Assembly: GCA_010093605.1 (NCBI GenBank)
Contig: MU004182.1
Span: forward strand, 901,032 to 965,031
Source of the DNA: Lophium mytilinum
Lineage: Eukaryota
Direction of reading: 5' to 3'
DNA: 64,000 bases
In this document: one piece after another, positions 7,484 through 63,103 of the stretch
Layout of the letters: every line of letters starts with the position of its first letter
Position numbering within the stretch: position 1 is the first letter of the stretch
Notes under the pieces: generated by a model
What the model was told of the DNA's origin: nothing
What the model saw: the letters and a program-made list of their open reading frames with translations, nothing else
The model's database searches: none
Position numbers and translations under genes: made by a program

Positions 7484-8312
7484 ATGTCCAACCCAGTATT
7501 TGTGCTTCTTCACGGCGCGTGGCATAGCCCCAAATGTTGGAACCGCCTGATTGCTCAACTAGAAAAGTCGGGCCACTCGGCCGTCGCGCCTGCCCTGCCA
7601 TCCTCTGGATATAATCCACCACTCCCAGACTGGTCGAAAGATGTCGAGATAATTCGCAACACGGTGACCGATCTTGTCCAGGAGCACCATGTGATCGTGG
7701 TCACGCACAGCTTTAGTGGTATGACTGGTGGTACTGCTCTGGAGGGACTCGACAAAGAGACCTGCAAGTCCAAAGGTCTGAAAGGGGGAGTTGTGAGATT
7801 GGTTTACATCATTGCTTTCCTAGTACCAGAGCGATTCCAGCACTCCCCTCAAGGCACTAGAGACAACATGGTGCCGGAGATGATCACTGATCTTGATGTG
7901 CGTCCCATAAGTGACCGCCCGTCTCCATCCTACCATTTTTGACCATATTTAACAGGCCAATTCCGTTACTGTGCGACCAGAAGACGCAAAGGCTATGTTT
8001 TATCAAGACATAGAGGACGATGCAGTTGCCGAGCTTGCGAAAGACCTGCGCCCACAGAGCTTGGGAGCCTTCTGGAGCACGACTACATTTGCTGCTTGGC
8101 GTTATATCCCAACAACTTACGTCCTGTGCACCGGAGACAAGCCATCCACAGTAACTGCTGCACAATACCTGGTTGATTCGGGGAAAGCAAGTGGACCCCA
8201 TAAGATTGATAACTTGATTAAAGTGGACTCTGGGCATTCTCCGTTCATCAGCAACCCAGAATGGACTGCCCAGACCCTGATTGACGAGGCAGGAAGAGAG
8301 TTCCAGGTCTAA
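7484..8312 (+). CDS. Alpha/beta hydrolase (Abhydrolase_6, methylesterase-like; 2 exons)
   Basis: FVLLHGAWHSP oxyanion motif, THSFSG nucleophile elbow, CTGDK acid and SGHSPF catalytic His. Intron about 7897-7955. Confidence 0.9.
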
Positions 8313-10886: not shown

Positions 10887-12915
10887 TTAGATCCTGCCAC
10901 GCTCAAGGAACTTGTTGGGGATATCCACATATTTCGACCGGATGTACTCGCATAGATTCTTGCCCAAGCTGTCATAGCCACTAGTAGCATTGAAACCACG
11001 ATCTAGATGGTCGCGGAGAAGGAAGTGTACGGCGAGGATGTTGGGCATCTCAGATCGATCGATGTTCTTGCCCTTGTCATCCTTGCCCAGCAACTCACGA
11101 AGCTTCTCGACACTAAGCATCGTTCGGAACCACTCGTACTCATCGGCGTTGCGCACGAAGAGACCCAAGTTGGCGTTTGAGGACTTGTCACCAGATCGAC
11201 CCATCACGACGTAGCCTAGAGGAGCACGGGTAGTCGGGCCGAATTGTGATAGATCGACGGGGCTGCGGGTGTTGTATGTAGGTTGGTTGAAGTCGTATGT
11301 CTTCATCTGTGTGGGAGTAGGGATTTCGACGACGGTTCCATCAGGAAGATGAGCAGTTTCCTTGACGAACGACTGAGGCATCAAGCTGACCCAGTACTCG
11401 AAGAATGGCCGTCCAATGGCCTGGCGCATGTCTGGAGCCATGGTAGATCCTGGATAACCTTGGAGCAAGTTCTCAATACAGAAGCGGGCGAAAGAACCCC
11501 GATCGGAGTCGATCATAGCACCTGCGGATAAGAGATCGGGATCTTGGGTCTGGGCGAATATCCTCAAGTCGACGGTAGCCTCGTCCTGAGATTGTGGGTC
11601 TACTGGCACCGAACCAGCAATCTGGAACTTCAGGCAAGTAAATTTTTTTGCGTGGTCACCGAGAGCAGCCAAAGTTTGACGTTCGATCATCTTTGCCTTC
11701 TCCTCGATATTAAGACCGGTAAGGTAGAAGTGAAACTCGGCTTGGTAGCCACCCTTGGCGGTGATACCAACTAAGATACTTTGTTAGCGGTTTGTTGGGA
11801 ATTAGAAATAATAGGAACTGCGTACCTTTGGTGGTAGATGGGGCAGGCATGCCCTTAACACCAGAAACCTTGACGGCATTCTCTCCAACTTGTTCTAGCT
11901 TGACATCCTCGATATATGCGGTCACGTCTGAGTTGTAGTAGTAAGGACCCTGAATCTCGTACAGAAGCTGACTAGCAACGGTAGCGACATTGACAAGACC
12001 GTGCTTGCCCTTCTCCATTGTGATAACGGCCTCGCCGAGGTGGTCAAGAGCAGCAATCGGGTAGCCCATGTCGGTATCGTTGACGCCGAGGTCCTTGAAA
12101 CCGCTGTAGTAGCCACCTGTGGCATAGGTGCTGCACTCGATGATGTGTCCAACCATTAAAGCGCCAGCGAGCTCCTGGACGTCCTCTCGCTTCCAGCCGT
12201 GCCACCACATGGCAGCACCGACAATGGGCGACGCGTCAGCGACACGGCCGCAGACGACGATATCTGCTCCTCCCTCAAAGCAGGCTGCGATACCAGTACC
12301 TCCGAGGTAGCATTGGGCGCAGATCGGGTCGAATCCCCAGTCCTGAATGTTCTTGCCGGCGGGAAGGTTGGGGAAGTTCTCGCCTGTATCGAATTAGATC
12401 GTTGTTCGCCAGAAGCAACTTCTTACGGCTTACCCTTGTTGTACAACTCTAGCATGGCATCAGTGACATCGTCGCCATCCACATATCCAACCTTTAGATC
12501 GACACCGTGCTTGATAATCAACTTCTTGACTGCCTCTGCAAGACCTTGGACATCACTCGCACCGGCATTGACGCAAATCTTAGTCTTGTTCTTCGCTAAC
12601 CACGGGATGGCAGGGTCGAGCTCTTCCAAAAAGTATGGTTCGTAGGCAGCGCCAACTGCAGAAAGCTGCTTCTTGTTGAGTTTGTCCCGCTTGTCGGAGC
12701 CACGGAGGGTCATATTGCACTCGCTCATCCAATCTCCAGTGATGACATCGACTTGCGGCTCATTCTTGGCCATGTCATGAATGGCTCTTTTGCGGTCATA
12801 AACACCTGGACGGCAAGTCACATCAGTAAGTATGCTAGATAAAAGTAGGATATCTCTCACCTCCGGAGCATCCTGCCACATTGATGGGCCTCTTGTGGGT
12901 ACCGTTGGCAGCCAT
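10887..12915 (-). CDS. AtuA/DUF1446 (acyclic terpene utilisation family) protein, paralog 1 (4 exons)
   Basis: ATG at 12915; introns 12806-12860, 12384-12433 and 11771-11825. Motifs RPINVAGCSG, VITGDWMSE, GADIVVCGRVADAS, GHIIEC, QLLYEIQG and GRSGDK. Confidence 0.9.
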
Positions 12916-13402
12916 GTTGAACCAAGAAGACTGGGTATGTGTGAAAAGACTGAATTCAGGGGCAGGGTATCGTGACAGCTCTTAAAAATTCTAGTTCGAA
13001 AGTCGGAACGTAGTGTAGTTCAGGGCCGAGCTGGGCTTGAAAACAGCTTTATATCTCCTGAAAGATCTCAGCCCCCTTTGCCGACTTATCCATCTAAGAG
13101 GAATACGGCACATGACACCCCGCTATGCTTGAGATACCTTGCGGGGAGTATGCAGATAGAAGACGCCGGGGTTAGAAGTCCGGCAACAAAAGCTGGGCTT
13201 TCATGCAGGACCAGCTGGGGGGAACGTCTTCTGTACGGTAGACAATAGCCATACCAATCCAGGCCCAACACGAAGGAGTCCCACTGGGGTTGATTGGATG
13301 AGAATTTAGAGGTGGAGGGGTCGCGGGGTCGAGAAAATGTGGAGTGGCAACTGGTGGGACATGGCTACTGATTCATCCCGCTAATCACCATAATCCGAGA
13401 CG

Positions 13403-13417
13403 CTAATGAGTCATTAG
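13403..13417. promoter_or_regulatory. Palindromic cluster motif CTAATGAGTCATTAG, upstream of AtuA paralog 1
   Basis: Perfect 7-1-7 inverted repeat around a TGAGTCA (AP-1/Gcn4-type) core. Related copies occur at 17435, 22290 and 27340. Confidence 0.65.
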
Positions 13418-13649
13418 GCCACAATTCTGAGTGTACCCCGCGACTTTCTGACTTGTTAGACGTGCCGAAGACACGCTGGGAATCGATGAAGGGCCAGGCA
13501 CACATTCAAGGGCCGCGGATATACGTCGGGCCAGTCATTATCCCGTGAGCGGCGAGAAGTCTTACCACAACAGAGTAGTTTAATTCAAACACATTGCGCT
13601 GAGAATGAGCTATAGTTCTGTACAGACTTCTATGATATACGCGTCGTTC

Positions 13650-14431
13650 TTATAGGTTAGAAGACGGTCTCTCTTTGTGAAGGTAGCCAGCTACAACTTT
13701 GAGGAATGCAAACTTTAGGTTTGTCCTGATATCGCCGTACTTTGCCTTATTGTTTGTCACAGCTGCACTTTTCGCGTGGACATCCCAAAGATACTTCTCG
13801 CTCTCGTACACTTCGACGGTCCTGATGGTGTTTTCCTGATCCTTGTCTTTCAGGATTGCGTACGCCAATGTGCCTGGCTCGTTGTTCTGGCTCTCGGACG
13901 TGACGGCCTTCCAGCCGTCGAATGCGCCTGCTCTTGTCCCATCCTTATAATCGAGTGTCGCAAACACAATATAGGGATTGCTCGCCTTATTGCTTTCCGG
14001 TCTGGTGAAGGAGAAGGCAGTTTCCGTTGTGTAGACTTTCGTGGGAGCCGCGAACAGCGAAGTTTCCGTAGTGAAGGTCTTTATCAACTCTTGAACCGCA
14101 TCCGAAGCCAGGTGAGCGTCGACTGTGGCCTGGTCGGCATATCTAGGATGGTCAGCATGTTGTTGCCGTATTATTGCTTTATTGAACTAACTCTTCAATA
14201 GCGTAGACAGACAAGTCGTCCTGGGGATCAGTCGAAACTGTTACGGCGTATCTGACGACTCCAGGCTCCTGAGCTTGCGAGTAGTGGCCGACTTTGGTGA
14301 GCGCATCGATGAGCTATACGCCGGCATGTTAGTCAATCATCTACCGACAAGAGCTTGCTAGAGAGACATGCCTTCCGCTTGGCCTCTTTTGAAGCCGCAG
14401 CGAGATGCCCGATCACAACAATGGAAGGCAT
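13650..14431 (-). CDS. Tandem ABM/Dabb (dimeric alpha-beta barrel) domain protein (3 exons)
   Basis: ATG at 14431 (MPSIVVIGHL). Two repeats of the pattern EPG(V/T).Y..vYaiEEY.D/S...HL/HA. Two short introns near 14143-14191 and 14313-14373. C-terminus -SNL. Confidence 0.8.
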
Positions 14432-14938
14432 TTTGACGATTGAGCAGATGTCGAGGAGGAAAACGCCATCAAGGTGTCCAGCGATTCATTTTGTCCCCTC
14501 CACTAGGCTGCACGTGCGGACAAGCTAGCGGGAACGAGTTGCTAAAGCACGGCATCATAGGACCGTCGGAATGTGTCCAGGTGGGAGTCGAATGGGGTTG
14601 TGGGGAACTGCCTAAGGTGGAGGTCAAGGAAGTAGGTTCCCGAAGGTCACGTGCCGCTACAGCTTAGCGCTCCTGCGCTGTGATCTTTGCTTTTACCGAG
14701 CTTCTCTCCCCTTTCTCATCACATCCTCGATATGTCCAACCGTACGGAGTTAAGCATTTGCTTCTAGCTTACTCCTCCCACGGCCAGTCTGTCAGCAGCA
14801 CGTGGAAACAGAACACATTCAAAAAAGCGCCATAAAATGTGTAAACGACCAAGTGGCTAGCTTGAACAACTTTCATAAGAATACGGCTAGGCGATGCTTT
14901 CAGATGCTCGGATCTCTTCGATAGCAGATTGGGAGAAC

Positions 14939-16984
14939 TTAAACGACATCTTTCTCCTGAACGACATCATGCTCCAGATTCCCTCCGATGGTCTTGCCAT
15001 GCATCCTCCTCTCGATCTTGCTGGTAAGATGCTTCTTAGGATCCTTAGTAAACAGAGACCCAATGATGGCGATACCTCCGAAGCCCAGGGACGCCAAGTA
15101 GACTGTCTTGAACGCAGCCGCATACGCGAACGGAACAGAACCTGCTACTGCGGTGATGACGGCCGTTGTTATGCCTGGAACTTCCGCCAACTTTCCTGTG
15201 CTCACCGCTGCTAGTACTGCGGGAACTTCTGATGAGGGCAGCCCAGCTGCGACGGCTGCACCACCTACCATGGAAGGTAGGGTCTCAGACAGCCTGTTTG
15301 TCAAGATGGTCGAATACACAGCGACAGCAATTGATCCACCAGCTGCTCGGATTGATGCCAGCATGCCAGACGAAAGGCCAATGTCTTCTGCGTGGCAGAA
15401 CAGTGGGGCCATAGACAAAGCAGCAAGCTCGATAAATCCGACGAAGAACGGTCCGAGAATGGTGAATGCAATACCCATACTCTTCGTACTCGGTGTCAGG
15501 GACGAGAGGGCCGATACGAACGAGACCATCCCACAGGCTGATATGATTGTCCAATATCGAGCATTGCCGAAGTAGCGGATCATGCCTCCAGCGCATACCT
15601 GGCCGAGTGCCGTAGCGGCACTGACAGTGCACTGAAAACAGAAGGTCAGTGTAGCTCATAGAGAGCCTGAATGCTGCTGAATTGCTTACAGATAGCCATC
15701 CGGCATAATTCACATCACTAGTGTACATTGTGGAAACCTGTTGTGGCCCTGTCGCATGGGTCAGCTTTGATTCATGCACTAGGAGTGCTATACTCACATA
15801 GAAGAACGGCTGAGTAGTAGAACATGCTAGCGACGGTTGCGCAAGTTACCAAGCTGATGAAACCTCGGTTTCTGAAGAGCTTCATTGGCATCAAAGGATA
15901 TTTTTGATTCCCGAAGGCCTCCCAGCAGCCGAACGAAATCAGTAGAACTACACCAATCACCATGGTACTAATCACGGCTGCAGATTTCCATGGGAACAGC
16001 CCGCCTCCCTATGTTTTCACGGTTAGAAATCCGAGATATTAAACGTACAAATCGCAATACTGGGTTAGAAGAAAGACTTACCCAGGAAAGACCCATCAAA
16101 AACAAAGTGAGGCCAGAGATCCACAAGAACATGCCGACAAAATCCAATTCCTTAGCTTGAGACATCTTTGATTTGTGCTCGTGCAACATCTCGAAAGTTG
16201 GTGGATGGTAGAAGAAGAATAGGAGGACGACAGCCAAACCGGTAGTAATTAGGTTAAGGTAGTATGTCCATCTCCACCCTAGGGAAGGGTCCTGGATGAA
16301 TGCTCTAGCGATTTTTGGTCCAAAGGTGGCAATCGGTGCTGATGTCGCGAAGATAAAGGACATGACAGCAGGGCGGTACTTATTTGGTACCAATTCGCCG
16401 ACTGCGACGCCAAAGCTGAGCTGAATGCATTCTCCGAGACCATAGACCACGCTCGCGAGAATCAAAGCTGTGATGTTCTGAGCTGTGCAGCCTACGATAA
16501 CACCGATGAAGCAAACGACATTGCCACCGATGAAAAACCAGCGACGTCCTGCTTTACGTTAATTACTGCCGAGCGAGAGCTGAGGAGGCAGAACTGACCA
16601 AACAAATCACTCAATCGACCAGAGACCAAGAACATGCAGCTTTCAGCCAGAGTTCTCCCAATATTGACCCATGCAATGTTCTTGTCTGGCCCGATGTCTT
16701 CATTGATGTAGGTCAAGACATTTGTAGGCAGGATTAGGAAGATGTAGGCCGACATTTGGGCAAGACAGAGTCCCTTTACGCTGTTAGAACGGGATCTGCA
16801 AAGAGAGAGTGAGAAGAGTTCTTACAGCCATCGTTCCTAGGAATGGTAGACTGTAAAAGTAATTATTGGGTATAGTATCGCCACGCGCCACCTCATTGAT
16901 GGAAAGAGTCTCCTCTTGCGAGGAGGTCTCGTCTTCAACAATTTCGTTCTTTTCTGCCATGTTCTTATGGGATTGCGGATCCAT
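14939..16984 (-). CDS. MFS transporter, Tri12 (trichothecene efflux pump)-like, multi-exon
   Basis: GRLSD.FGRRWF MFS motif A across an intron, GELVPNKYR, GWRWTYYLNLI, FFYHPP, LDFVG, LMPMKLF, RAAGGSIA and AYAAAFKTVY. About 6 introns. The start may be 16984 or 16960. Confidence 0.88.
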
Positions 16985-17434
16985 GTGGACCGCGTACGAG
17001 ACGGGGGAGGTACTGCTCGACGTTGACGCGTTGGAGAGGAAAGGAAAGCCCAAGAGCTCAATTAGGGAAAGATGTGCGAGTATCAAGGGACGACAGAGAG
17101 CTGTGTGGAAGTGATGTCTATCACAATGCCCAGAGAACTAGTCTCATGACCAGGAAGGGAGCTCCATACATATAGCAAACGCCTCGTCCTTAGTCCCTCG
17201 CCCTCATTTGGCGTAATCTCAGGGCCTACGGGCATTCTAAACACCCTGAGCGCCTATTCGGTCCCCGCATCCTCCGGGGCCTCCGCACGTTCTCTAAGCG
17301 ATGATATGGGGTTTGGGGATAATAGTGGGGACCGGGGAAACCCTGCAGGTCAATATGGTCACCGACGAGCCCGGAAAACGATTTGCAGATCGTAGCGTGC
17401 CTCGAAAATGCCCTTTCGACTCATGTCTTGCAGG

Positions 17435-17448
17435 CACTAATGATTCAG
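17435..17448. promoter_or_regulatory. Partial cluster motif CACTAATGATTCAG, upstream of the MFS gene
   Basis: 13/14 identical to the reverse complement of 27340-27353. Further (T/C)GACTCA-like cores lie nearby at about 17418, 17459 and 17538. Confidence 0.55.
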
Positions 17449-17732
17449 GTGAAGCAATTGACTCAGGTAAAGCGCTAGAGGAGGCGACGACGAGTCAATG
17501 GAATCCCGAATTAGCGCCACCGCAACATCACTCGCCGACGACTCAGCAGAACGCGTCGCAAAGAGCTCTACCATTCGTGCCACTTCTTCCGATGCACAAC
17601 CTCAGGTCTCATATCACATGGTTATGGATTCTTCTCGTTCTTCAATAAGATAGGCTAATCTAACAGTCATCTTAGACTTTCAGACATCTACAGTAGCTAG
17701 TCTTCCTGCGAGGTGAACCCAAAAGACAGTCA

Positions 17733-18612
17733 TCAGCAGATCCATCCACCATCAACTGAATGTATCGCCCCTGTTATGAAAGTGGACTCGTCGCCTAGAA
17801 GGAAGGCTACCAAACTTGCTACCTCTGATGGCTTCCCAGGCCTATTCAGTGCAGTATGGGCATAATTATCAAAAGTGACATTTGGGTTCCCGGCTCCCGC
17901 GATCTCTCGTGCCTTGGCGACCATTGGAGTCTCTATCGTTCCACTAGATCTCCTTTCAGCTTTCACAATCTTAGTTCGAGCGTGGTCGTATCACTTACGG
18001 AGCAATGGCATTTACCCTGATGCCTTTAGACCCCATGTCTTTTGCGGCACTTCGAGTAAGACCGACCACGCCATGTTTACTAGCTGAATACGAAGCATTC
18101 TTCGCTCGGCCTGATATGCCCGCCACTGAAGCAGCATTGACGATGGAGCCACCATTTTCCATGTTCTGGAGCTGCGCTCTTTGGCAGTACCTGTCGAGTC
18201 GCCAAGTTAAGACCCATATTATTAGGGGAAAATGTGGCACTAACATTAGACCGGTAAGGTTGACCCCGATTACAAAATCCCAATCAGAATCTTCAATCTC
18301 CGCAGCCGTTTTTATGCCAATAGCGTTCCCAGTCACTCCAGCCAGATTGGCAGCACCATTCAATTTTCCAAACTTCGAGACCGTTGCGTCGATCCACGCG
18401 TCTACCTGCTTCCGGTCCCGGACGTCCATTTTGAACGTCATGACCTCTCCACCTGCAGAGCGGATCTCCTTCGCAGCTTCGTCTAATGGTCCTTCCTGCA
18501 CATCCCCGATGGATACCTTGGCGCCCCTTGAAGCTAGTAGTTTTGCTGTAACGAGGCCGATGCCAGATGCGCCACCAGATACAACAATCACCTTGTCCTT
18601 TAGAGAAGACAT
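17733..18612 (-). CDS. Classical short-chain dehydrogenase/reductase (3 exons)
   Basis: SGGASGIG, NLAG, catalytic S..YSASK, IRVNAIAPG and ITG..HSVDGG. The Asp after beta2 suggests NAD(H) preference. Introns about 17933-17998 and 18192-18245. Confidence 0.92.
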
Positions 18613-18983
18613 TGTATTGGCTTGGATAGTGGCGGAACTGCCTACGATTTGAATTGAATAAAGCGGCCCCTGCAGCTTGCGCCGTGCGGAGTACGTCAAG
18701 GACCGAGCACTACCACCAGTAGCAGATTGTGGAGAAAGGAAAGTATTGCCGAGTTCAAAATACTACATCGTCAAGTACTCGCAGTTGCACTTGTCAGCTT
18801 TATGGAGCAATGTTCGGCAACTGGTTGAAATCCCCGCGTCCAAAGCTGGATAATGTCTCCCGATCACGTGCTTTAGCACTTACACAGCTCCACTTACTCG
18901 TAATTTTAGTATCCGCATCCCTTTTAGAGGATCTTTGCGCCTGTATCAAAGTGACGGTATACAGTACGTCTCCTTTAGTCGCG

Positions 18984-21010
18984 ATGCCAGCTTCAAAGAT
19001 ATACCGTTCGAACTATCCCCGTCCTCATGTTCCGACAAATCTCAGTATATCTCAATATCTTCAGCTATACAACCCAGATGATGCAGCCGCCGACAAAACT
19101 ATCTTCCAAGACGATTGGACGGGAAAGAGTCTAACATATTCTGGGCTGAGAACTCAAAGTGCTAAAGGCGCCTTCGGTCTAAGACAGTTACTCAATCTGG
19201 AGGAGGGAGGAGTTGGTGTGTTGTAATCTTCCCTACATTCGTGCCGTTCACACCGTTTAATTTCTCCCAGTGCTCATATGCGCTCCGAACTCAGTAAGTG
19301 AGCCCTCGGCACGGCATTTCGAGCACTCCGGACTGATGAAGCAATTAGGTGGACGTCGTACTATTGATTCATGCAGTCTTGTGGTGTGGTGGGACTGCAG
19401 TGTAAGCTCGACAGGCAACTAGAACGCCCCAGATTCTGATGCTCCGCTTTTAGACTTGTCAATCCGCTTAGCACCTCGTACGAGGTAGCCCACTGCCTCG
19501 GGATATCTGAGCCTAAGATCCTAGTCGCCGACTCGAGCACATGGCCAACCTTGTTCACTGCAAGTCAGACAGTCCCGGCGGCTGGGACATTCGCCACGTT
19601 GTCTCTAGATGCAGGACCGTGTCCCTTCCCGTCGGTATGTCCTTCCTGTCTCACCTTCCCCGCCCTCGAACTAAGCTGATAGCTTCCAGGCTATTCGTCT
19701 ACCCCAGATCTTCCAGACTAACAATGCCTTACCACCTCTGGACTTGTCAGAGCGGGACAGCCGCGATTATACGGCATGCGTCTGCTTTAGCTCTGGAACC
19801 AGTGGCAAGGCGAAGGGAGTGGAGCTGTCCCACTACAATCTCGTTGCGTCCATGGCAGGGATCCGATCGTCGGATACCACTCTCTGGAACGAGACTATCA
19901 GACAAGTTTTCTTTGCCCCTCTATGCCACATATATGGTGCGTGACGAAGTGGTCTGAAGAAGCTAAACTGATCCTAATCATGGCATAGGACTCGTGAGTG
20001 CCGCTCTGATGGGAGCATCGATTGGCTACTATACCATGTTGATGAAGAAGTACACACTAGGAAGACTTCTCGAGCTCTCTGCGAAAGTTAATGCCAATAC
20101 CCTACGCATCCTTCCGACCATTGCGGTTGCGATCACTAAGGATCATGGGTTCGACCTCGCACAGTTACAGAGTATCAAGTTGATCATGTGCGCTGGAGCA
20201 ACATTGCCCCCGAAGATCATCGAATTCTTCAATCAACGGTTTCCGGGCGCTCCTATCTTCCAAGGCTATGGAATGACAGAAACGAACATTACCACTCTAA
20301 GACCTGAGCAGGCTCACATGATAGGCAGCGTCGGAAAGCTTTTTGCTAACCTCGAGGCTAGGTTGGTCGACGATGATATGAATGACGTGGAGTTTGGCGA
20401 GGAAGGCGAGATGCTCCTCCGTGGGCCGACAGTCTTTCGCAGGTATATGAAAAACCAGGCAGCCACAGATGAGACCTTCCATGAGGGCTGGATGAAGACC
20501 GGTGACATTCTGCGGTCCGATGAAAATGGGTTCTTCTATCTGACCGAACGCAAGAAGGTACGTCCACCGGAAAGGGAGAGAGGTCTTTCGCTAATGCCGT
20601 GTCTAATAGGAATTGATCAAGTACAAAGGGTATGCAAGCTCGTTGTAGTTGAGAGAACATCTAACTGATTCGATTCTAGTAACCAAGTTGCACCGGCGGA
20701 ACTCGAAGCGTACCTTGGAGGCCACCCTTACGTTAGAGAGTGTGCTGTATGTGCACTTTGGGATGAAGACCAGGGCACTGAAGTTCCCATCGCATACGTC
20801 GTTTTGACTGATGAAGGAAGAGCGGCGAGCGAGAACATTGCTTCCACGCTGGCAGAGATCCAGAAGCACGTCGACAGCAAAGTCTCGCCCTACAAGAAGC
20901 TCAGAGGAGGTGTCGTAGCACTCGACGAGATACCAAAAACGGGCACGGGCAAGGTGCTCCGACGTCTGCTGCCCGCAAGACTAGCAAAAGAACGATCATC
21001 AAAGCTTTAG
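18984..21010 (+). CDS. 4-coumarate:CoA ligase-like acyl-CoA ligase 1, peroxisomal (-SKL), multi-exon
   Basis: FSSGTSGKAKGV, QGYGMTE, KTGD, ELIKYKG (20-nt micro-exon 20610-20629), VAPAELE and IPKTGTGK. Ends in SSKL. Confidence 0.92.
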
Positions 21011-21042
21011 AAATATACAATTACAAGTTCCACATCACACCC

Positions 21043-21879
21043 CTATAACCTGCTAGCCTTCCACACTGGCGATCGCTTCTCACTAAACGCCTTCAACCCT
21101 TCCAGTATATTTTCACCCTTCTGCAACTCCGCAAACTCCCTATCCATCGTGATCCCTACCGCCTCCTCCACCGCCGCCGTCTCCCACCCCTGCCTGATTC
21201 CAGCCCGCGTACAGATAATAGCATCAGGACTGTTCACCGCAATCGCCGTCGCGTACTTGACCGCCTCCGCTACCAGCTCACTCTTCGGCACAACCTTATT
21301 CACAAGTCCCCACGCCAGCGCCTCCTTCGCCGTGACATTCCGCCCCGTCAGCGCAAACTCGCTCGCCCGCTGCAGCCCAATCGTGCGAATAAGCCGTGGT
21401 AGCGCGCCCCCGATCGGCGAGATCCCGCGCTTGACCTCCGGCAGGCCGAAGTACGCCTCCTCGGCCGCGACCACGAGATCGCAGTTGACGATGAACTCAG
21501 TCCCGCCGCCCATCGCGAGGCCGTTGACGGCCGCAATCACGGGCTTCTTGCCGAGCCGTCGCGAGAGGGGAGTGAAGGCTGGCGCGTTGCCCATGCGGCT
21601 GTTGGGGTCGGCGTCGGCGTCCATGGAGGAGTTCCATTCTTTGAGGTCGGCGCCGGCGCTGAAGGCGCGCCCGGTTCCTGTGATGATGGCGACGGAGAGG
21701 TTGGGCTCGGCGTCGAGCCATTTCCAGACGGCGTCCATTTCCCATTGCGCGGTCGTGTTCATGCAGTTGAGGTCTTTGGGGCGGTTCATGGTGATGAGGA
21801 GGACGCGGGGCGCGGGATAGGAGAGGAGGAGGAAGGTGGGTGTTGGTGGTGGAGGGGTGGTGGTTGGTAGAGAAGCCAT
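21043..21879 (-). CDS. Enoyl-CoA hydratase/isomerase (crotonase) 1, peroxisomal (-SRL)
   Basis: Intronless. AFSAGADLKE, KPVIAAVNG.AMGGGTE and FGLPEVKRG (both catalytic Glu present). Ends in ASRL. Confidence 0.93.
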   Translation of the reverse strand: MASLPTTTPPPPTPTFLLLSYPAPRVLLITMNRPKDLNCMNTTAQWEMDAVWKWLDAEPNLSVAIITGTGRAFSAGADLKEWNSSMDADADPNSRMGNAPAFTPLSRRLGKKPVIAAVNGLAMGGGTEFIVNCDLVVAAEEAYFGLPEVKRGISPIGGALPRLIRTIGLQRASEFALTGRNVTAKEALAWGLVNKVVPKSELVAEAVKYATAIAVNSPDAIICTRAGIRQGWETAAVEEAVGITMDREFAELQKGENILEGLKAFSEKRSPVWKASRL

Positions 21880-22289
21880 TGTGGGATGCTGGAGGGAGAG
21901 GGTTCACGCGTAGTGAGAGGGTTATTCTGATGGTAAGAAAGGAAAATGTTCCAACGCTGAACCAATGAACGCTGGTACAATCTAACGCTGTGACTTCGTT
22001 GAATAGCAAGCAATGCGAAGGAATGAAGAAAACCAGGTGTGGTGTTGAGAGTGGAAAAGTACCGCGAGTCATGAGAATTATTGCAAAGAAACGACAATCA
22101 GTCTCACGATTCGTGTGCAGACCTCGGGAGACCCTGCTAATGCACTGTAGCAGGCGCCTCTACCGTGCCGTCTCGACGGGTGTAAGACTCCGTAGGTGGC
22201 GGCAGGCGGTGAGATAAAGATGGAGGACGAGTCGTGGAGTACCCCACGGGGAGCATTAGTCGCAGGTGGAGACCCTTTAACCCCGTTCA

Positions 22290-22304
22290 CTAATGATTCA
22301 TTAG
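22290..22304. promoter_or_regulatory. Palindromic cluster motif CTAATGATTCATTAG in the divergent ECH1/AtuA2 promoter
   Basis: Perfect 7-1-7 inverted repeat, 14/15 identical to 13403-13417. Confidence 0.65.
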
Positions 22305-22590
22305 CGTCTCTCCCAATTGCGGGGAAGAAGCCGCAAACCACCCACGCCGCGATCTGCCAACGCGAAACTGCATCAAGTCATGCTCTTGTTCCTGCTTGGC
22401 GGCGTCAAACTGACTCTCGCTGTCCCCTCATTCATGCCAGGTGGAGGGGAGCACGGGTAGAACGGCGACGGCGACGGCGTTACTTCAAGGCAATGCTCCG
22501 CAGGCACTGCGTAGGTAGCTTGTTCTATCAAAATATATCGAAGTCATACCACAATCACCTTTCTTATCGTCCCTTCTCGAAGTATCCGAG

Positions 22591-24450
22591 ATGAGCTCCC
22601 AAAACACCACAACACGTCGGCCCATCCGCATAGGCAATGCCTCCGGCGCAATCGGAGACGGCATTGACCAGGTCTACCGCCTCGCTCGCGACGGCAACGT
22701 GGACGCAATTACGGCCGACTACCTCGCAGAATTCAACATTGCCTGGAAAGCGATTGAGTTGACTACGGAGCCAGACCTGGGGTACGAGCCCAACTTTCTC
22801 GACCAGCTAGCATGGCAAGATGGCGCCGCTGCGAAGCTGTTGCGGAGGAAGAGAATCAAGGTTGCGCATGACGGTGGAGCGTTGAACCCCAAAGGGCTGG
22901 CCGAAAAGGTTCATGCCTACTTCTTGAGCTTAGGCATTGAAGACATGAGGATTGCATGGGTCAGTGGTGATGATGTGACAGCGTTGGTTAGGGGGGAGAA
23001 CTTTGGCGCACTACAACACTTGGATTTGCGAGGGGTAAAACTGGATGTCAAGACTGAAAAGGTGTTAGCCGCCAATGTATACACTGGACAAGCAGGTGTG
23101 GTGCGGGCCCTCGAAGCTGGGGCTGACATTGTCATCTGTGGGAGGTGTTGCGATGCCTCTCCAGTCATGGGTCTTGCGTATTGGTGGCACAACTGGAAAT
23201 CCACGGACTACGATGCCATGGCAGGAAGTCTTATCGCTGGACACCTCATCGAATGCGGAGCGTATGTGACGGGAGGAAACTACTGCGGGTTCAAAGAGAT
23301 TCCTCAACGCTACTCCTTCGGGTACCCCATCGCCGAGATAGCTGCAAATGGATCCGTGGTTATTACCATGCCAGAAAACAGCAACGGAGCTGTGACCGTG
23401 GACACCACCAAGGCACAGCTGTTGTACGAGATTCAGGGGCCCTTCTATCTCAACGCCGACGTTATAGCTCGCATAGATGGTGCTGTTTTGGAACAAGTGG
23501 GAAAGAATAGGGTCAGACTGTCTGGAATCAAAGGATCTGCACCACCTCCGACATCAAAACTAGCAATCAGCCTCTTTGGCGGTTGGCAAGCCGAGCTATC
23601 AGCATACAGTGCAGGGCTGGATACTGTAGAAAAATTCGACATGATGAAAGATCAAGTGCGACGATACATCAACCCGGACGAGTTCACGACTTTCAGCATG
23701 GAGACATACGGAGTAGCGCCTCAGGATCCGAAGTCCCAAAAGGAATGCACAGTGCAGCTTCGGATGTTTGCCCAGGCACCGGAGAAGGAAGCGATAACAG
23801 AGTTCAAAAGAGCAATCCTTTACAATGGTATCCAGGGGTATTGCGGGTTACATCTGCATATGGACTGGAGGACGATGGAGCCGCGGATGTATCTCAAATA
23901 CTTTCCAACTCTTGTCCCGCAAGATGGTACTCCGCTGGCAGTCCATTTCGTAGGCGAGCCGGGCAACGTCTTAGATGTACCCGCAAAGCGGATCGAGGAT
24001 TGTGCGGAAGAGGTTCCAGTGCAGCCAGACTACGAGGGAAGGCATCAAGCCGTGAACCTAGCCACTTTCGGAGAGACAGTGCGTCGTCCTTTCGGCGATC
24101 TAGTCTTTGGGCGTTCGGGTGACAAGGGCGGAAACGCTAATGTTGGTATCTGGGTAAGAGACGCCAAAGCCTGGCCATGGCTTCAAAGTTTCTTGACCTC
24201 AAAGAAGGTGAAAGAGCTGCTAGGCGATGATTGGAGTGAAAAGTACTCGGTCGAGCGATGCGAATTTGAGCATCTAATGGCTGTCCATTTCGTGGTCCGC
24301 GGAATCCTCCAAGATGGCGTCTCTAGCAGCAGTATCTTGGATGGGTTTGGCAAGAGTTTTGGGGAGTTCATTAGGGCGCGATATGTAGATATCCCGAAAG
24401 GTCTTCTTGAAGTTGAGCAAAGGAGGAGACAACCTCAAGCACAACTTTGA
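22591..24450 (+). CDS. AtuA/DUF1446 protein, paralog 2 (intronless)
   Basis: RPIRIGNASG, ITADYLAE, GADIVICGRCCDAS, GHLIECG, QLLYEIQG, GRSGDKGGNANVG and AVHFVV..L.DG. Ends in AQL. Confidence 0.93.
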   Translation: MSSQNTTTRRPIRIGNASGAIGDGIDQVYRLARDGNVDAITADYLAEFNIAWKAIELTTEPDLGYEPNFLDQLAWQDGAAAKLLRRKRIKVAHDGGALNPKGLAEKVHAYFLSLGIEDMRIAWVSGDDVTALVRGENFGALQHLDLRGVKLDVKTEKVLAANVYTGQAGVVRALEAGADIVICGRCCDASPVMGLAYWWHNWKSTDYDAMAGSLIAGHLIECGAYVTGGNYCGFKEIPQRYSFGYPIAEIAANGSVVITMPENSNGAVTVDTTKAQLLYEIQGPFYLNADVIARIDGAVLEQVGKNRVRLSGIKGSAPPPTSKLAISLFGGWQAELSAYSAGLDTVEKFDMMKDQVRRYINPDEFTTFSMETYGVAPQDPKSQKECTVQLRMFAQAPEKEAITEFKRAILYNGIQGYCGLHLHMDWRTMEPRMYLKYFPTLVPQDGTPLAVHFVGEPGNVLDVPAKRIEDCAEEVPVQPDYEGRHQAVNLATFGETVRRPFGDLVFGRSGDKGGNANVGIWVRDAKAWPWLQSFLTSKKVKELLGDDWSEKYSVERCEFEHLMAVHFVVRGILQDGVSSSSILDGFGKSFGEFIRARYVDIPKGLLEVEQRRRQPQAQL

Positions 24451-24832
24451 GGTCCACCCCAGACATGGACGAAATGAGAAGTTCTACTTAACACCATTGA
24501 AGAGAACGCAACGCATAGAAGTAGTGATGAAGTTGAGAGGTTGATCGCGAGTCTGGTCTTGATTGGTCTGTCGATGACGACAATAGAACAAATGCTCTAG
24601 TGCCGCCGAGTGAAGGTCCGGAAATGCTACACCGACCCCACATCCCCTCCCATCTTCCACGCCCACCCATGCCGCGACCGTCGACATTACCTAGGCAATC
24701 CGAAAGCGGCATGGGCTCTCTTGACGTCTTCCCCGGGCTGAGGCCGGTTGAATTCATAGCTACCTTCTTGACCGACTCTTTACTTACGTCGTTGCGTACA
24801 TTTGCTACCCAAAACATTCTCGAAAAGCACCA

Positions 24833-25968
24833 ATGACCTCCTCAAGTGACAAGGTCGTCAAGAACGCCGCCGGTCGGTATGACAACGTTGATTTCAAGAA
24901 GGCTATAGGGTACAAGTACGCTCCCATTAAGGCCGCCTATCTTCGACGCGATGTCCTCCTTTTCGTACGAAACTTCTCCCCAAACCCTCACTATACTAGT
25001 ACTGATTGTCAAGCAGGCCAACGCAATTGGAGTAACCAAAGACGAGCCACACTTTCTCTACGAACTACATCCCAAATTCGCAGCCTTTCCTACCTTCCCT
25101 ATAAATCTAGCATTCAAGCAGGATGACCAAGACGTGTTCGACTTCATCCAGCGAACCGTGTCAGCCGACGTACCCGGCGTCCCCCCATTCGACCCCAAAA
25201 GATCCGTAGATGGCGAGCGTGGCATCGAGATCATTCGGCCGATACCCACGTCCTCAAAGGGCCTTGACTTGGAGATCAATGGCTCGATCGTTGGAGTGTA
25301 CGACAAGGGAGGCAACATGATACTGGAAGCCGAGCATCTGCTGCGGGACGCGAAGACAGACACCGTCTATGCGAAATTGACCAACGTAGCGTTCGGGATC
25401 GGACAGGGCGGATATGGGGGCCCTCGAGGACCCGCTACTAAATCTTACCCGCCTCCAGAGCGTGCACCAGATGCAGTGCATGTCTTCCAGACGTCGCCGG
25501 AGCAGGCGCTCTTGTATCGGCTGTGTGGGGATTACAACCCGATACACGCTGATGATGAGTTTGCGAAGGCTGGTGGGTTCAAGGGCGCTTTCATGCAGGG
25601 CTTGGGTACTTGGAATATCGCGGCCCATGGTATCCTGAGGGAAGCTGGCGGGAGTGATCCGGCACGGTTTCGTAGCTTCAAGGCGAGGTTTGCGAATATC
25701 GTGTACCCTGGTATGTTCCGCTGTAACTCTTGTTGTCTCGAAGTGCTAACTTTGTCTAGGTGATGCTCTGGAGACGCGTATGTGGAAAGTAGGGACAAAC
25801 GATGGAGTAGATGAGTTCATCTTCCAAACAATAGTCCAATCAGACGGACGTATTGCCCTGTAAGTCTAGATCATAGAGTAAGACGTTCTACACGAAGCTA
25901 ATGGCGAACCCAGATCCAATGGTTTTGCTACCATTAACCAGGCGAGTCCGCTGAAAAGTAGTCTTTAG
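24833..25968 (+). CDS. Peroxisomal MaoC-type (R)-specific enoyl-CoA hydratase 2 (hot-dog fold; 4 exons)
   Basis: YELHPKF..FPTF, VDGER and the hydratase-2 motif LYRLCGDYNPIHAD; ARF..VYPGD. Introns about 24965-25016, 25712-25759 and 25860-25913. Ends in KSSL. Confidence 0.9.
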
Positions 25969-26061
25969 CCTTAAATCTAATGCATATCTTGTCTCCATAC
26001 TCAGAAATGAAAAATATATAATCTTGAAAAGGTCTTTCAAATCATCTAGGATATACAACAT

Positions 26062-27041
26062 CTACAAATACGAAGGCAACCACCTCGGATCCCTCTTCTC
26101 CCTATACGCTGCCAACCCCTCCGCAGCATTCTTACTCCTCAACATAGCCTCACTATATATCTCCTGCCCTCGCATCGTCGCGCGACTAACGCCTGTTTCC
26201 CACGCTTCTCGTGCCGCCAGCCTCGAGATGATAACGCTATCAGGGCTCTTCTCCGCAATCTCAACCGCATACGCAATGGCCCTCTCAAGCAACTTCTCCT
26301 GCGGTACAATCTCCTTCACCAATCCCCAACTCACCGCCTCCTCCACCGACATCCGTCTCCCAGTCAGGATCAGATCCATAGTCCTGTGATTTCCAAAGAG
26401 AAGCATCGCCCGCGGCAGAGCACCAGCAAGCGCAGAGACACCTCGTAGGACCTCTGGGAGGGCGAACGTAGCGTTTGGCGACGCGAATATCACGTCTGCG
26501 TTTAGGATTGCCTCGAAGCCGCCTCCTGTTATCGGTATCAGCATCTACCATGCAGTAATCGGATTCCTTTCGAGATATGAGGCCTACCGTGTGCGTGTCC
26601 ATTACAAGCCACCACAATCGGCTTCTTGCCCGTCCGATTGCTCATCCCCGCGAATCCGCCGTGCGGGTAGTCGTGCGCAACGTCGTTGGTTTTGATGAGG
26701 TCGAGGCGCTGCTTGAGGTCCATGCCTGCGCAGAAGGCCTTTTTGCCAGCCTATCTCCCCAACCTATATAAGCTTTTCCTCCCATACGATCTGATGTGGA
26801 TGTATATAGCACTTACGCCCGTGAACACCGCACATCTAAGCTCCGGCTCTGCATCGTACCACTTCCACAACGCACCCAGCTCGATGGTCGCTTCGACAGG
26901 GAGGCAGTTCATGTACTGCGCACGGTTTATGGTGACTTGGAGGATGTGTTTCGCCGGGAAGGAGATGAGCGAGTGCTCCACGCGGGGGTAAGGGTTTTCG
27001 AGCCACGCGGGGACGGGGTCTTTGGTGCGTGGGGTCGTCAT
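26062..27041 (-). CDS. Enoyl-CoA hydratase/isomerase (crotonase) 2 (3 exons)
   Basis: AFCAGMDLK, KPIVVACNG.AHGGGFE and FALPEVLRG. ATG at 27041; introns about 26526-26587 and 26751-26816. Ends in SYL. Confidence 0.9.
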
Positions 27042-27339
27042 CGCGGAAGGTAGATGTATCAAATGGAAGCAATTGAACAAGCTGGGTGTATGCTCTCCAA
27101 TTGACAAGATACGAAGAAATGCGAAAACCAACAAGAAGAACAGAAATCCACGATCGTCCAACGCGCCAAAGCCTCGAAGCCTAACTTCTGTTCCGCTCCA
27201 CGGGTCATCGACGCATGCATCCTGCACCGCTGAATCGCTAAATCATACCTCGGCGCTTGCTTGAATCATTGCCCTTAGTGAGGCACTGCGGCGGTGTACC
27301 TGGGGTATCTTTTTCCCACAGTGACGGCGGCTCTCGGAA

Positions 27340-27353
27340 CTGATTCATTAGTG
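27340..27353. promoter_or_regulatory. Partial cluster motif CTGATTCATTAGTG in the divergent ECH2/ligase-2 promoter
   Basis: Its reverse complement CACTAATGAATCAG matches the copies at 17435 and 22288. Confidence 0.55.
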
Positions 27354-27679
27354 GGATGCAGGGTGCGTGCAGGGGTAGCTAGGATGCGCGCGGGGCGGCT
27401 GGGGTAAGCTATTGTGGGGCACGTTGGCAAGCGGATATCAGAACGCGGAGGTGGAGAGGTGGGGAAGAAGCGGTGCGAGTAAGGTGTTTACACAAATGTA
27501 CCTATGTACGACAGTACCGTGGGGTAGGCTGCGGAAAGGACGGCTTCGAGGTGGACGAAGCTCTTCGTCACCTCGTTGGAGCTGTTTTTCTGGTTGGAAA
27601 GCTCGTTGCTGCGTTGTGATCGTGAAGTTTGAGCATCGCGATCTTTTCAATTCGTCATCAAACACTCAATCCAGCCGAA

Positions 27680-29518
27680 ATGCGCGTCTACAAAGCCCCC
27701 CAAACCATTGACATCCCTCAAGACCTTAATCTCACCGAGCTCCTCCACACAAGCAACGACCCACCTCTCCCTCCTTCCCACCTCATCACGAAAGATAGCC
27801 TTACCAACCGGAGCATTACCATCGGAGAGCTTCGCCAGCGTGCAGGAAGAATAGCAAATGGACTGAACTCGACTCTCAAACCCCACGATCAGAGCAGGTG
27901 GGCTGTGATTCTGCCAAACAGCGTCGAGTATCTGGAGGTCTTCCATGCGGTGCTCTGGGTCGGCGGAGTGGCGTGCCCTATAAATCATGCTATCAAGGCG
28001 GAAGAGATTGGCCATGCGTTTTCGGTCACGAGGCCAGATTTCGTTATCGTATACGGGCCAGCGCTATCGAAGGTGCTCGAAGCAGTGGAGGTTGCCAGGA
28101 GGGAGTTGGCTACTGAGGGAGTGACATGGGATACACCTAAGATTGTGACTGTGATTGAGAGTGCCGATGGATTTAAGCATATTCCTGACGACTTTCTTGC
28201 CCCGGAGAAATTAGCCATTCCGCATTTCAGCGATACGAAAAGGTGAGCTGTGGTGTTGAGAGATAGTCAGACTGTGACTAAGCTAATCTGGTGGTCAGCC
28301 GTCTCGCAACAATACACCTCTCATCTGGAACTACGGGCAAACCAAAAGGCGTAGAGTTAACACAGTAAGTAGATCAACGTAGTAGTTGGTGCTGATGCTG
28401 ACATGATTTCAAGCTTTAATTTCGTATCCAACGTGTATCAACTTCGTGCTCACGACCCGGCACAGTTCCACCGTGGCAGCCGTGTTGTTGCCTTTACTCC
28501 ATTCGCGCACATCGGAAACACAACAATACCCTTATTTCTCGGCCCGTTCATGGGCATGATGCATCATGGTGAGTTATACGTAAACTCATGTCTAGTTCCT
28601 TGCTAATTGTGGCGCGAAATAGCCATGCCTGCGTACGATCTTGAAACATTCGGACAGCTTGTAGATTCAAATAAAGCCACGATATTCCAGGGTGTTCCCT
28701 CCGTTGTTCTTTCGTTTGCGAATACGGACATTGCCGATAGGTTCGATTTTTCAAAGGCGGAAGTAATAAACGTCGGTGGACCGCCTTTCAAACGGGACAT
28801 GCTTGAAAGGCTGTTGAATAAGGCGCCATGGAGGTTGAACCAGGTTTACGGGATGACGGAAGGCGCTGGGTATGTTGCGTACCAGAGATCTACCGACAAT
28901 CAACTGGAAGGGGTCGTAGGGCCTCTAGTGCCAAACATAGAAGTAGCGTTGCGTATCAACGAGGGAAAAGATGATGCGCCTGAAAACGGCCCAGGCGAAC
29001 TATGGTTGAGGGGCCCCAATATTACGAGGGGATATGCTTTCAACACCGAGGCAAATCAATCGGCGTTCCCCCAGGAGGGATGGTATAATACAGGAGATGT
29101 TTGTACGGTTTCAAGAGATGGGGTGATCGCGGTGGTCGGGCGGACGAAAGAGCTGATCAAGTACAAGGGCTTCCAAGTGAGCCCTGCCGAGCTGGAGTCG
29201 TATCTCAACTCCCATTCCCATGTTGCTGAAGCAGGTGTGGGGCCTGTGTTTGACGAGAGCCAGCTCACGGAGCTACCGACAGCGTACGTAATCCTGAAGG
29301 ATCATTTAGTCCTTGAGAAGGATAAAAGAACGGCTTTGAAGGAGATTCATGCAACGGTGGATGACCGCGTGAGTGGATATAAAAAACTCAGAGGCGGTGT
29401 TTGGGAGGTGAAACTGTTGCCCAAGAACCCAACGGGCAAGATCCTGAGGAAGCAACTCCAAGACCACAAGTCGGGTCTGAGTTCTCTAGATAGAGGGGAT
29501 AGAAGATCAAAATTGTAA
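27680..29518 (+). CDS. 4-coumarate:CoA ligase-like acyl-CoA ligase 2, peroxisomal (-SKL; 4 exons)
   Basis: HLSSGTTGKPKGV exon (about 28299-28363), QVYGMTE, NTGD, GRTKELIKYKGFQVSPAELE and LPKNPTGK. Ends in RSKL. Confidence 0.92.
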
Positions 29519-29636
29519 AGAGAATGGGGACGTCGTACCAATACAAAATAATGCAAGCCGCAAAGCACGACAAAATGCCAGAGTCCTACGGACAAGTACA
29601 CAATCAGTCGGTGCTGTGGTGGTGTATCTGAAACCC

Positions 29637-62983: not shown

Positions 62984-63103
62984 AGCGCCTACCGGGGCGG
63001 TAGTAGTATTCTTAATATCTAGGCCTAGATAACTATACTTAGCGCCTACCGGGGCGGTAGTAGTATTCTTAATATCTAGGCCTAGATAACTATACTTAGC
63101 GCC
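62984..63103. repeat. Exact 57-bp tandem duplication (about 2.1 copies)
   Basis: 62984-63040 is identical to 63041-63097, followed by a further AGCGCC. Confidence 0.95.

Follow-up and report, generated by a model that had tools for sequence, protein, structure and literature searches.

Proteins of the AtuA/DUF1446 family are widespread among bacteria and fungi, and their role in terpene breakdown is tentative, with the lyase step credited either to AtuA (PMC4847356) or to LiuE (PMC4097962) in the available portions of these two sources. In a 64-kb window of the Lophium mytilinum genome (the whole stretch of 64,000 nucleotides analysed here; assembly GCA_010093605.1, contig MU004182.1, positions 901,032 to 965,031), ten genes lie back to back at positions 10887-29518, and among them two AtuA paralogues stand beside enzymes predicted to supply their substrate. 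This is fungal DNA whose genes carry short GT-AG introns, and the gene models were built by hand from splice-site consensus and reading frame. Domains were assigned with Pfam on 22 chosen open reading frames (ORFs) inside the cluster and on 93 stop-to-stop ORFs of at least 110 amino acids in the flanks, with exons shorter than 110 amino acids falling outside the scan. A first-pass annotation, made from the letters of the DNA, had named ten consecutive families with no housekeeping gene among them, and all ten were recovered at the place given by gene models and Pfam, with no housekeeping gene between them. The intergenic gaps of 32-748 bp leave no room for an extra gene inside the cluster.

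Both AtuA proteins belong to the AtuA/DUF1446 family (PF07287 and PF23544) above the curated cut-offs. AtuA2 (22591-24450, plus strand) is a single exon of 619 amino acids, which scores 521.9 bits for PF07287 (cut-off 22.8, E 1.6e-156) and 62.2 bits for PF23544 (cut-off 27), the ferredoxin-like domain that follows. AtuA1 (12915-10887, minus strand) has four exons and 622 amino acids with the same two domains, and its exons score 101.6, 284.5 and 105.6 bits for AtuA and 44.3 bits for the ferredoxin-like domain. Two ANL ligases with AMP-binding and AMP-binding_C domains are encoded on the plus strand, lig1 (18984-21010, eight exons, 551 amino acids) and lig2 (27680-29518, four predicted exons, 559 amino acids), and the lig2 model is found as a 559-amino-acid database protein at 100% identity. 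The hydratases comprise two SidH-like enoyl-CoA hydratases (CoA, coenzyme A) with ECH_1 domains on the minus strand, crot1 (21879-21043, a single exon, 278 amino acids) and crot2 (27041-26062, three predicted exons, 283 amino acids), as well as MaoC (24833-25968, plus strand, four exons, 326 amino acids), a stand-alone protein of the MFE-2 hydratase-2 type that carries PF22622 (MFE-2_hydrat-2_N) and PF01575 (MaoC_dehydratas) and is predicted to be an R-specific enoyl-CoA hydratase. The other three genes are all on the minus strand: an ABM protein (14431-13650, three exons, 224 amino acids) with two ABM halves in tandem (PF03992), a TRI12-type MFS transporter (16984-14939, six predicted exons, 587 amino acids, PF06609 and PF07690) and a classical SDR (18612-17733, three predicted exons, 256 amino acids, adh_short).

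The three divergent pairs that had been noticed at first sight are SDR/lig1, crot1/AtuA2 and crot2/lig2. Paralogues within the cluster are 37% (AtuA1 and AtuA2), 31% (lig1 and lig2) and 42% (crot1 and crot2) identical, and are thus old and not the product of a recent tandem event.

The linkage of these genes extends well beyond L. mytilinum. When metagenomes were scanned with aligned AtuA2 orthologues, 80 loci came up, which were then searched with all ten proteins, and 11 of these loci are fungal-like, with proteins 57-78% identical to AtuA2. Three contigs share the order lig2, AtuA2, MaoC, crot2, which continues with crot1 in L001, with crot1 and MFS in L005, and reaches the contig end in L002. 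A TARA contig (L003) holds seven of the ten genes, in the order AtuA1, SDR, lig1, crot2, AtuA2, lig2 and crot1; L006, L008 and L009 have one further cluster gene each, and the contigs of L004 and L012 are too short to judge linkage. MaoC lies directly 3' of AtuA2 in L001, L002, L005 and L008, and these two genes make the tightest conserved pair: they are on the same strand, 382 bp apart in the window, and fused in two gene models. Homologues of crot2 (72-89% identical) are present in L001, L002, L003, L005 and L009, those of MFS adjoin AtuA2 orthologues in L005 and L006, and those of SDR (60-65%) adjoin AtuA genes in L003 and L039. Two further neighbours were seen in these contigs: an FSH1-type serine hydrolase between lig1 and crot2 (L003:7231-8136), with no counterpart inside the window cluster, and a carboxylate reductase resembling a non-ribosomal peptide synthetase (NRPS) near the AtuA2-like gene of L006, the only locus with such a gene.

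Named genomes tell the same story. Orthologues of AtuA2, crot1 and lig2 carry locus tags 1-5 apart in 14 genomes of Sordariomycetes, Dothideomycetes and Eurotiomycetes, and a recurrent pattern of tags (lig2 = n-1, AtuA2 = n, crot1 = n+3), as in Neonectria magnoliae (006333, 006334, 006337) and Thyridium curvatum, matches the order of L001 and L005. Four gene models that appear to be mis-fused point to further adjacencies: AtuA2 with MaoC in Neoarthrinium and Colletotrichum, AtuA2 with lig1 in Cudoniella (a lig1 orthologue 57% identical), and lig2 with ABM in Xylariales sp. PMI_506, where the ABM part is 39% identical to the ABM protein of the window. Among 4400 homologues of AtuA2, the best 120 are all fungal or without organism name, and crot1 orthologues are 75-85% identical across classes. 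Judged from these contigs and genomes, a five-gene core (lig2, AtuA2, MaoC, crot2, crot1) is conserved across Sordariomycetes, Dothideomycetes, Leotiomycetes and Eurotiomycetes, and AtuA1, SDR, lig1, ABM and MFS join it variably. The early proposal of a conserved unit acting on CoA thioesters, for which synteny across ascomycetes had been named as the check, is thus borne out by the metagenome loci, the 14 genomes and the fused gene models; as a ten-gene unit it holds for the five core genes, which are widely found together, but not for the other five, which associate variably. Our literature searches found no paper describing this fungal cluster.

A peroxisomal location had also been put forward, and the protein ends agree with it. 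With the C-terminal tripeptide [SAC][KRH][LM] taken as the peroxisomal targeting signal type 1 (PTS1), three proteins of the window end in a canonical signal: lig1 (SKL), lig2 (SKL) and crot1 (SRL). After rows of atypical length were left out (11, 8 and 11 for crot1, lig2 and AtuA2), a canonical PTS1 was counted in 107 of the 109 orthologues of crot1, in 92 of the 112 of lig2 and in 40 of the 109 of AtuA2. The ending x[KR]L is seen in another 39 orthologues of AtuA2, which brings the total with such an ending to 79 of 109. Peroxisomal import, as predicted from these ends, is a conserved trait of the core.

The clearest clue to the chemistry comes from the predicted fold of AtuA2. Its AlphaFold2 model, obtained from an alignment of 51 fungal and non-fungal sequences, reaches a pLDDT of 89.1 and a pTM of 0.91. 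A plain sequence search against the Protein Data Bank (PDB) with phmmer gave no match at E ≤1, but Foldseek found a single PDB match for the model at E ≤0.001, the chain 9evf_A ('Citramalate lyase - ADP - pyruvate complex'; E 4.9e-16), and a search with the family profile found the same chain (E 0.0019). A VIA-align superposition of AtuA2 on 9evf_A gave a Z score of 26.6 with a root-mean-square deviation of 3.0 Å over 316 residues, the next best Z score being 6.1, and the aligned span covers residues 8-458 of the model and 1-456 of the chain. When the C-terminal domain of AtuA2 was modelled alone (pLDDT 85.5), its best match was the second chain, 9evf_B (E 2.9e-3, probability 1.00, TM 0.71). 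In these models, AtuA is a single-chain equivalent of both subunits of the newly solved citramalate lyase CmlAB. The depositors themselves labelled the entries 9ERQ/9EVF as 'AtuA family protein' and 'Citramalate lyase, subunit A (cmlA)', and the first-pass remark that the reaction of AtuA was still to be settled is therefore outdated for the family. As for the second paralogue, AtuA1 keeps 51 of the 60 family-invariant columns, and the nine changed positions include no D, E, K, R or H, so that both AtuA copies look intact by sequence. Within the family, fungal and bacterial members have many invariant polar residues in common.

The genomic company of AtuA in other organisms is also that of CoA-ester metabolism. 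Of the 29 non-fungal AtuA loci, 16 have CoA-ester enzymes within 2.6 kb, counting as such ligases, family III CoA-transferases, acyl-CoA dehydrogenases, crotonases, hot-dog hydratases, thiolases and carboxyltransferases. One of the non-fungal loci (L065:10001-14449) presents AtuA directly followed by an acyl-CoA dehydrogenase and a carboxyltransferase, which is the classical atu-type layout. In another four (L019, L035, L055 and L074), AtuA is paired with family III CoA-transferases of ~500 amino acids, in which the matching domain is confined to the C-terminal half. A different setting is described for enterobacterial C5-dicarboxylate clusters in the accessible part of a 2015 paper, where a DUF1446 gene lies downstream of methylaspartate ammonia-lyase (PMC4682846).

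The hydratases and ligases point to particular kinds of substrates. The best PDB match of crot1 is the mevalonyl-CoA hydratase SidH (7OEQ, 292 bits, ~51% identity as counted by hand from the alignment), and crot2 likewise finds SidH 7OEQ first. Since the crot1 orthologues of Eurotiomycetes (Paecilomyces, Rasamsonia, Polytolypa) are 77-82% identical to crot1, compared with ~51% for SidH, crot1 would be a paralogue of SidH and not SidH. MaoC finds its best PDB matches in 3kh8, a MaoC-like dehydratase, and in the peroxisomal MFE-2 hydratases. Both ligases resemble 4-coumarate-CoA ligases (4CL) and luciferase, with lig2 being 4CL-like. The SDR has its best PDB sequence matches among reductases of small ketones (levodione reductase and acetoin/diacetyl reductase), and for the ABM protein the PDB gave a weak sequence match only.

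One of the closest known counterparts of this gene set is the atuABCDEFGH cluster of Pseudomonas, which includes AtuA, the SDRs AtuB and AtuG, the crotonase AtuE that makes a tertiary alcohol and the acyl-CoA synthetase AtuH, as given in the available text of PMC4847356. Compared at the family level, AtuA, SDR, crotonase and acyl-CoA synthetase are all present in the window, and the two systems would share the hydration and subsequent C-C cleavage of a 3-branched acyl-CoA, which in the window is a predicted feature. The window differs in its two AtuA proteins, two ligases, MaoC hydratase and SidH-like crotonases, and in being eukaryotic, with introns and peroxisomal signals. It also differs in what is missing: no counterpart of the geranyl-CoA carboxylase AtuC/F (Carboxyl_trans, biotin carboxylase) occurs in the 22 cluster and 93 flank ORFs, and none of the citronellyl-CoA dehydrogenase AtuD (Acyl-CoA_dh) among the window ORFs scanned. 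The first-pass annotation was right in that the bacterial set of acyl-CoA dehydrogenase, carboxylase, hydroxymethylglutaryl-CoA (HMG-CoA)-type lyase and thiolase has no Pfam match among these ORFs. From this it had drawn a different chemistry with AtuA possibly as the key catalyst, a view that stands in part: because AtuA2 matches both CmlAB chains, the 'missing lyase' is most likely AtuA, but the type of step, hydrating and then cleaving a tertiary alcohol, would be the same as in the atu/liu route. What is really absent relative to the atu/liu logic, judging from gene content, is carboxylation.

CmlAB itself (PDB 9ERQ/9EVF; Raoultella planticola, Berg laboratory) resembles AtuA2 in both parts, residues 8-458 corresponding to chain A and the C-terminal domain to chain B, and its reaction splits a tertiary hydroxy acid, with acetate and a ketone (pyruvate) as products. 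In contrast to the single-chain AtuA1 and AtuA2, CmlAB consists of two subunits, and its substrate is a free dicarboxylic acid; the available description places it in a glutamate/mesaconate setting and mentions no CoA enzymes, whereas the fungal AtuA genes lie among CoA ligases and hydratases with peroxisomal signals. The two-step logic proposed for the window reappears in anaerobic naphthalene degradation, where the hydratase ThnL makes a tertiary alcohol and an 'AtuA-like aldolase' is then proposed, according to the accessible part of a 2026 report (PMC13689101). There too, a crotonase-type hydratase on a CoA ester precedes a proposed C-C cleavage, although the system is bacterial, anaerobic and ring-opening, and the aldolase step is a proposal there as well.

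Another parallel is found in the SidI/SidH pair of Aspergillus siderophore synthesis, a peroxisomal ligase and crotonase that handle 3-hydroxy-3-methylacyl-CoA. SidH, described as a peroxisomal mevalonyl-CoA hydratase in the available text of PMC3709128, is the best solved relative of crot1 and crot2 and, like crot1, ends in a PTS1. However, crot1 is not the SidH orthologue as far as identity comparison tells (~51% against 77-82%), and the transacylase, NRPS and ornithine monooxygenase of the siderophore module were not found among the window ORFs scanned. Nor did Pfam find any domain of a polyketide synthase, NRPS, terpene synthase or dimethylallyl tryptophan synthase among the scanned ORFs of the 64-kb window, in agreement with the first description of the locus, and since there is no core synthase, standard cluster finders miss this cluster. 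By its gene content, the window cluster is neither a SidI/SidH module nor a secondary-metabolite cluster with a core synthase, and we assign it, on the same grounds, to an atu-like class of hydrate-and-cleave pathways without carboxylation, putatively housed in fungal peroxisomes.

Among fungi, the only AtuA-domain protein with a published functional study is VdAtuA3 (VDAG_02121) of Verticillium dahliae. The accessible part of PMC13399572 presents it not as a cluster enzyme but as a virulence factor and staurosporine target that partners the complex I subunit Nuo1 in mitochondria; according to its authors, the atu homologues of V. dahliae are unclustered. VdAtuA3 may be the orthologue of AtuA1 or of AtuA2, or a third paralogue. 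The V. dahliae orthologue of AtuA2 (P0069) is 63% identical and ends in PKL. The mitochondrial location of VdAtuA3 rests on a C-terminal eGFP fusion, and such a tag would hide PTS1-type ends.

A branch at C3 blocks ordinary beta-oxidation, and we tentatively propose, with a confidence somewhat short of even, that the cluster encodes a peroxisomal pathway for an acid branched at this position (beta-methyl or similar), built on a ligase, a hydratase and an aldol-type cleavage by AtuA. We infer all the catalytic steps, the catabolic direction and the substrate of this pathway. An ANL ligase, lig2 in the core and lig1 in the accessory part, would form the CoA thioester; the SidH-like crotonases and the R-specific MaoC would then hydrate a 3-substituted 2-enoyl-CoA to a tertiary 3-hydroxy-3-alkylacyl-CoA or, alternatively, interconvert the isomers of the latter. 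The AtuA proteins would next cut the C-C bond beside the tertiary alcohol, releasing acetate or acetyl-CoA and a ketone, and the SDR, which resembles ketone reductases, together with ABM and MFS, could process the ketone or transport substrate or product. Ligation, hydration and cleavage make the simplest reading because four lines meet in it: hydratases similar to SidH, the cleavage performed by CmlAB, the proposal of an AtuA-like aldolase and the 16 of 29 loci with CoA-ester enzymes. Of the terpenoid, branched or aromatic acids suggested at first as substrates, we favour, by analogy, isoprenoid-type or other 3-methyl-branched acids, and these over cinnamates since the crotonases are SidH-like.

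To our knowledge, there are two ways round the beta-methyl block: alpha-oxidation and the bacterial carboxylation route. A bolder form of the proposal, which we regard as doubtful, is that filamentous ascomycetes have a third, as yet undescribed one for isoprenoid-type and other 3-branched acids, in which CoA ligation and hydration are followed by a direct split through a fused CmlAB-type aldolase in the peroxisome, and the ADP site of citramalate lyase may hold the ADP part of CoA. If it were true, it would settle the function of AtuA, an issue ever since the first description of the atu cluster.

Several observations weigh against the branched-acid pathway. The identity between AtuA2 and CmlA is just 14-16%, and CmlAB, the only characterised member of the family in the available description, has a free acid and not a CoA ester as substrate. 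The accessible part of a review (PMC4097962) gives the lyase step of Pseudomonas to LiuE and not to AtuA, and VdAtuA3 is reported to be mitochondrial, to bind a complex I subunit and to be dispensable for growth on citronellol, at least in the portion of the study at hand (PMC13399572). Six proteins of the window lack a canonical PTS1 (AtuA1 ends in GRI, AtuA2 in AQL, MaoC in SSL, crot2 in SYL, ABM in SNL and SDR in WIC) and none of the ten proteins has a PTS2-like motif, so that import of AtuA2 in this organism would rest on the degenerate signal AQL. Linkage is not universal either: none of the ten cluster genes lies within the 8.8-10 kb available 3' of the AtuA2-like genes in L007 and L033, and a lig2-like gene of Fusarium zealandicum is on a different contig from its AtuA2. 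As for a common regulation, no 6-8-mer shared by the seven cluster promoter regions exceeds what random region sets give, and the FarA/FarB-type site CCTCGG occurs 28 times in the window, compared with 35.6 expected, with two occurrences in cluster promoters. The co-regulation put forward in the first-pass annotation gains no support from these motifs.

The relationship with citramalate lyase, the sole characterised relative of AtuA, also allows a C5 dicarboxylate (itaconate, mesaconate, citraconate or methylsuccinate) to be considered as the substrate, in which case a ligase and MaoC would lead to citramalyl-CoA, and AtuA2 would split it into pyruvate and acetyl-CoA, so that the mesaconase/CmlAB route would be copied at the CoA level. 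Hydratases of itaconyl- and mesaconyl-CoA are enzymes of the MaoC type, and the DUF1446 gene of enterobacterial C5-dicarboxylate clusters fits as well. Still, we hold such a route to be unlikely: MaoC is closest to the peroxisomal hydratase 2 of MFE-2, a fatty-acyl enzyme, the two conserved SidH-like crotonases would be left without an obvious role, the ligases are 4CL/luciferase-like and not of the dicarboxylate type, and fungal itaconate degradation is ascribed to other genes (ictA, ichA and cclA). By analogy, the CmlAB precedent and the close pairing of AtuA2 with MaoC would suit C5 dicarboxylates, and the SidH-like hydratases 3-methyl-branched acids. Aldol cleavages are reversible, and the cluster could instead be biosynthetic, with AtuA condensing in the aldol direction to add a beta-branch, the hydratases dehydrating, and the TRI12-type MFS exporting a small unsaturated acid with a branch, or one of its derivatives. 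This would agree with SidH, which runs in the dehydrating, biosynthetic direction for siderophores in the available text of PMC3709128, with the efflux pump and the ABM protein, typical of secondary-metabolite clusters, and with the ABM gene fused to or beside lig2 in the Xylariales genome. Against it, the absence of a core synthase among the scanned ORFs, the two ligases, which suggest uptake and activation of free acids, the position of MFS and ABM outside the conserved core, and a core conserved across at least four classes (crot1 75-85%), which looks more like primary or catabolic metabolism than like the making of a lineage-specific product, make this direction quite improbable.

AtuA may also not be a lyase here but an E/Z or positional enoyl-CoA isomerase, or may have a regulatory or mitochondrial role like that reported for VdAtuA3. 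The ligases, the S- and R-hydratases and the reductase would then make up a set auxiliary to beta-oxidation that serves unusual acids, fatty or aromatic. A common fold is no proof of a common function, all the more so at the identity with CmlA given above, the ligases resemble 4-coumarate-CoA ligases, and LiuE carries the HIHG-CoA lyase activity in Pseudomonas (PMC4097962) while VdAtuA3 was reported as a mitochondrial partner of Nuo1 (PMC13399572), both in the available parts of these sources. We nevertheless find this rather unlikely, since AtuA2 matches both chains of CmlAB, the large one over its full length, the polar residues invariant in fungal and bacterial members fit an enzyme, and a set with neither thiolase nor lyase would have no C-C cleaving step. 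The PTS1-like ends of 79 of the 109 AtuA2 orthologues also argue against a mitochondrial matrix protein, and the VdAtuA3::eGFP fusion of PMC13399572, being C-terminal, would mask a PTS1. That these are unrelated metabolic genes gathered by chance, with no common pathway, would agree with the lack of a transcription factor in the cluster and of a shared promoter motif, but such an explanation is very improbable and already contradicted by the synteny: five families recur, in differing gene orders, both in 14 named genomes and in several fungal contigs independent of one another, and bacterial AtuA genes lie among CoA-ester enzymes in 16 of 29 loci.

If the branched-acid pathway is real, many ascomycetes that are saprotrophs or live with plants, including Colletotrichum, Verticillium, Neonectria, Fusarium, Xylariales and Pleosporales, would have a catabolic route in the peroxisome that is new. 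A compact and conserved cluster of this kind offers a direct handle on the chemistry of AtuA, since the soluble proteins concerned number four or five and the list of CoA esters to consider is short. It also bears on the published claim of a fungal AtuA as a mitochondrial regulator and antifungal target, because most AtuA2 orthologues have peroxisome-type C-termini, which a C-terminal GFP would hide.

Contigs from a public run (X3) give a view of transcription. All 27 pieces aligned to the window are at least 99% alike to it, and the contigs show introns spliced exactly as predicted in AtuA1 (3 of 3: 12806-12860, 12384-12433 and 11771-11825, minus strand), ABM (2 of 2) and MaoC (3 of 3), as well as joints for at least six of the seven introns predicted in lig1. 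As these contigs skip predicted introns, they derive from RNA, and AtuA1, ABM, lig1 and MaoC are therefore transcribed. The two ABM introns (14314-14371, a GC-AG intron of 58 nt, and 14143-14191, minus strand) come from the RNA contigs; a first ABM model, with a GT-AG intron of 31 nt derived from splice-site consensus alone, was dropped once the RNA contig revealed the former. Because the data are contigs, depth was not used to rank the expression of the genes.

No splice joint of SDR, MFS, crot2 or lig2 is found among the X3 joints listed, and the contigs across lig2 and MFS retain predicted introns. The MFS contig (14734-16619) keeps the predicted introns 2-4 and skips 15643-15689, where an AG acceptor is absent; it may be an assembly artefact, a variant or unprocessed RNA, and the exons of MFS stand as predicted only. 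Collinear RNA-derived contigs cover the lig2 region at 27467-29538 and keep all three predicted introns, and a joint from 29292 to 29538, with the CT..AC ends of a minus-strand intron, overlies the 3' end of lig2. The signal at 27467-29538 looks like an antisense or read-through transcript from a minus-strand neighbour across lig2.

The window has no transcription factor among the ORFs scanned, and related contigs offer some candidate regulators: ORFs of the DUF3425 family stand beside AtuA1/SDR-type genes in two fungal loci (L003:2240-2956 and L039:8268-8624), and in a single locus (L001:16912-18534) crot1 is neighboured by a Fungal_trans_2 ORF, whose E of 8.4e-6 is weak. Outside the cluster, ORFs of at least 110 amino acids reveal genes that are unrelated or housekeeping: Swc3, an alpha/beta hydrolase and a DUF4185 protein in one flank, and a Fringe-like transferase, a Clp1-type protein, RPA34 and Mto1 in the other. 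The alpha/beta hydrolase (7448-8309) was considered as an AKT2-like member of the cluster and rejected, as it ends in FQV, has no PTS1, and a DUF4185 gene of secreted type intervenes before AtuA1. At the far end of the window (62001-64000), the G+C content falls to 28%, compared with 48-61% elsewhere, which may correspond to an AT-rich repeat or to a region of the repeat-induced point mutation (RIP) type.

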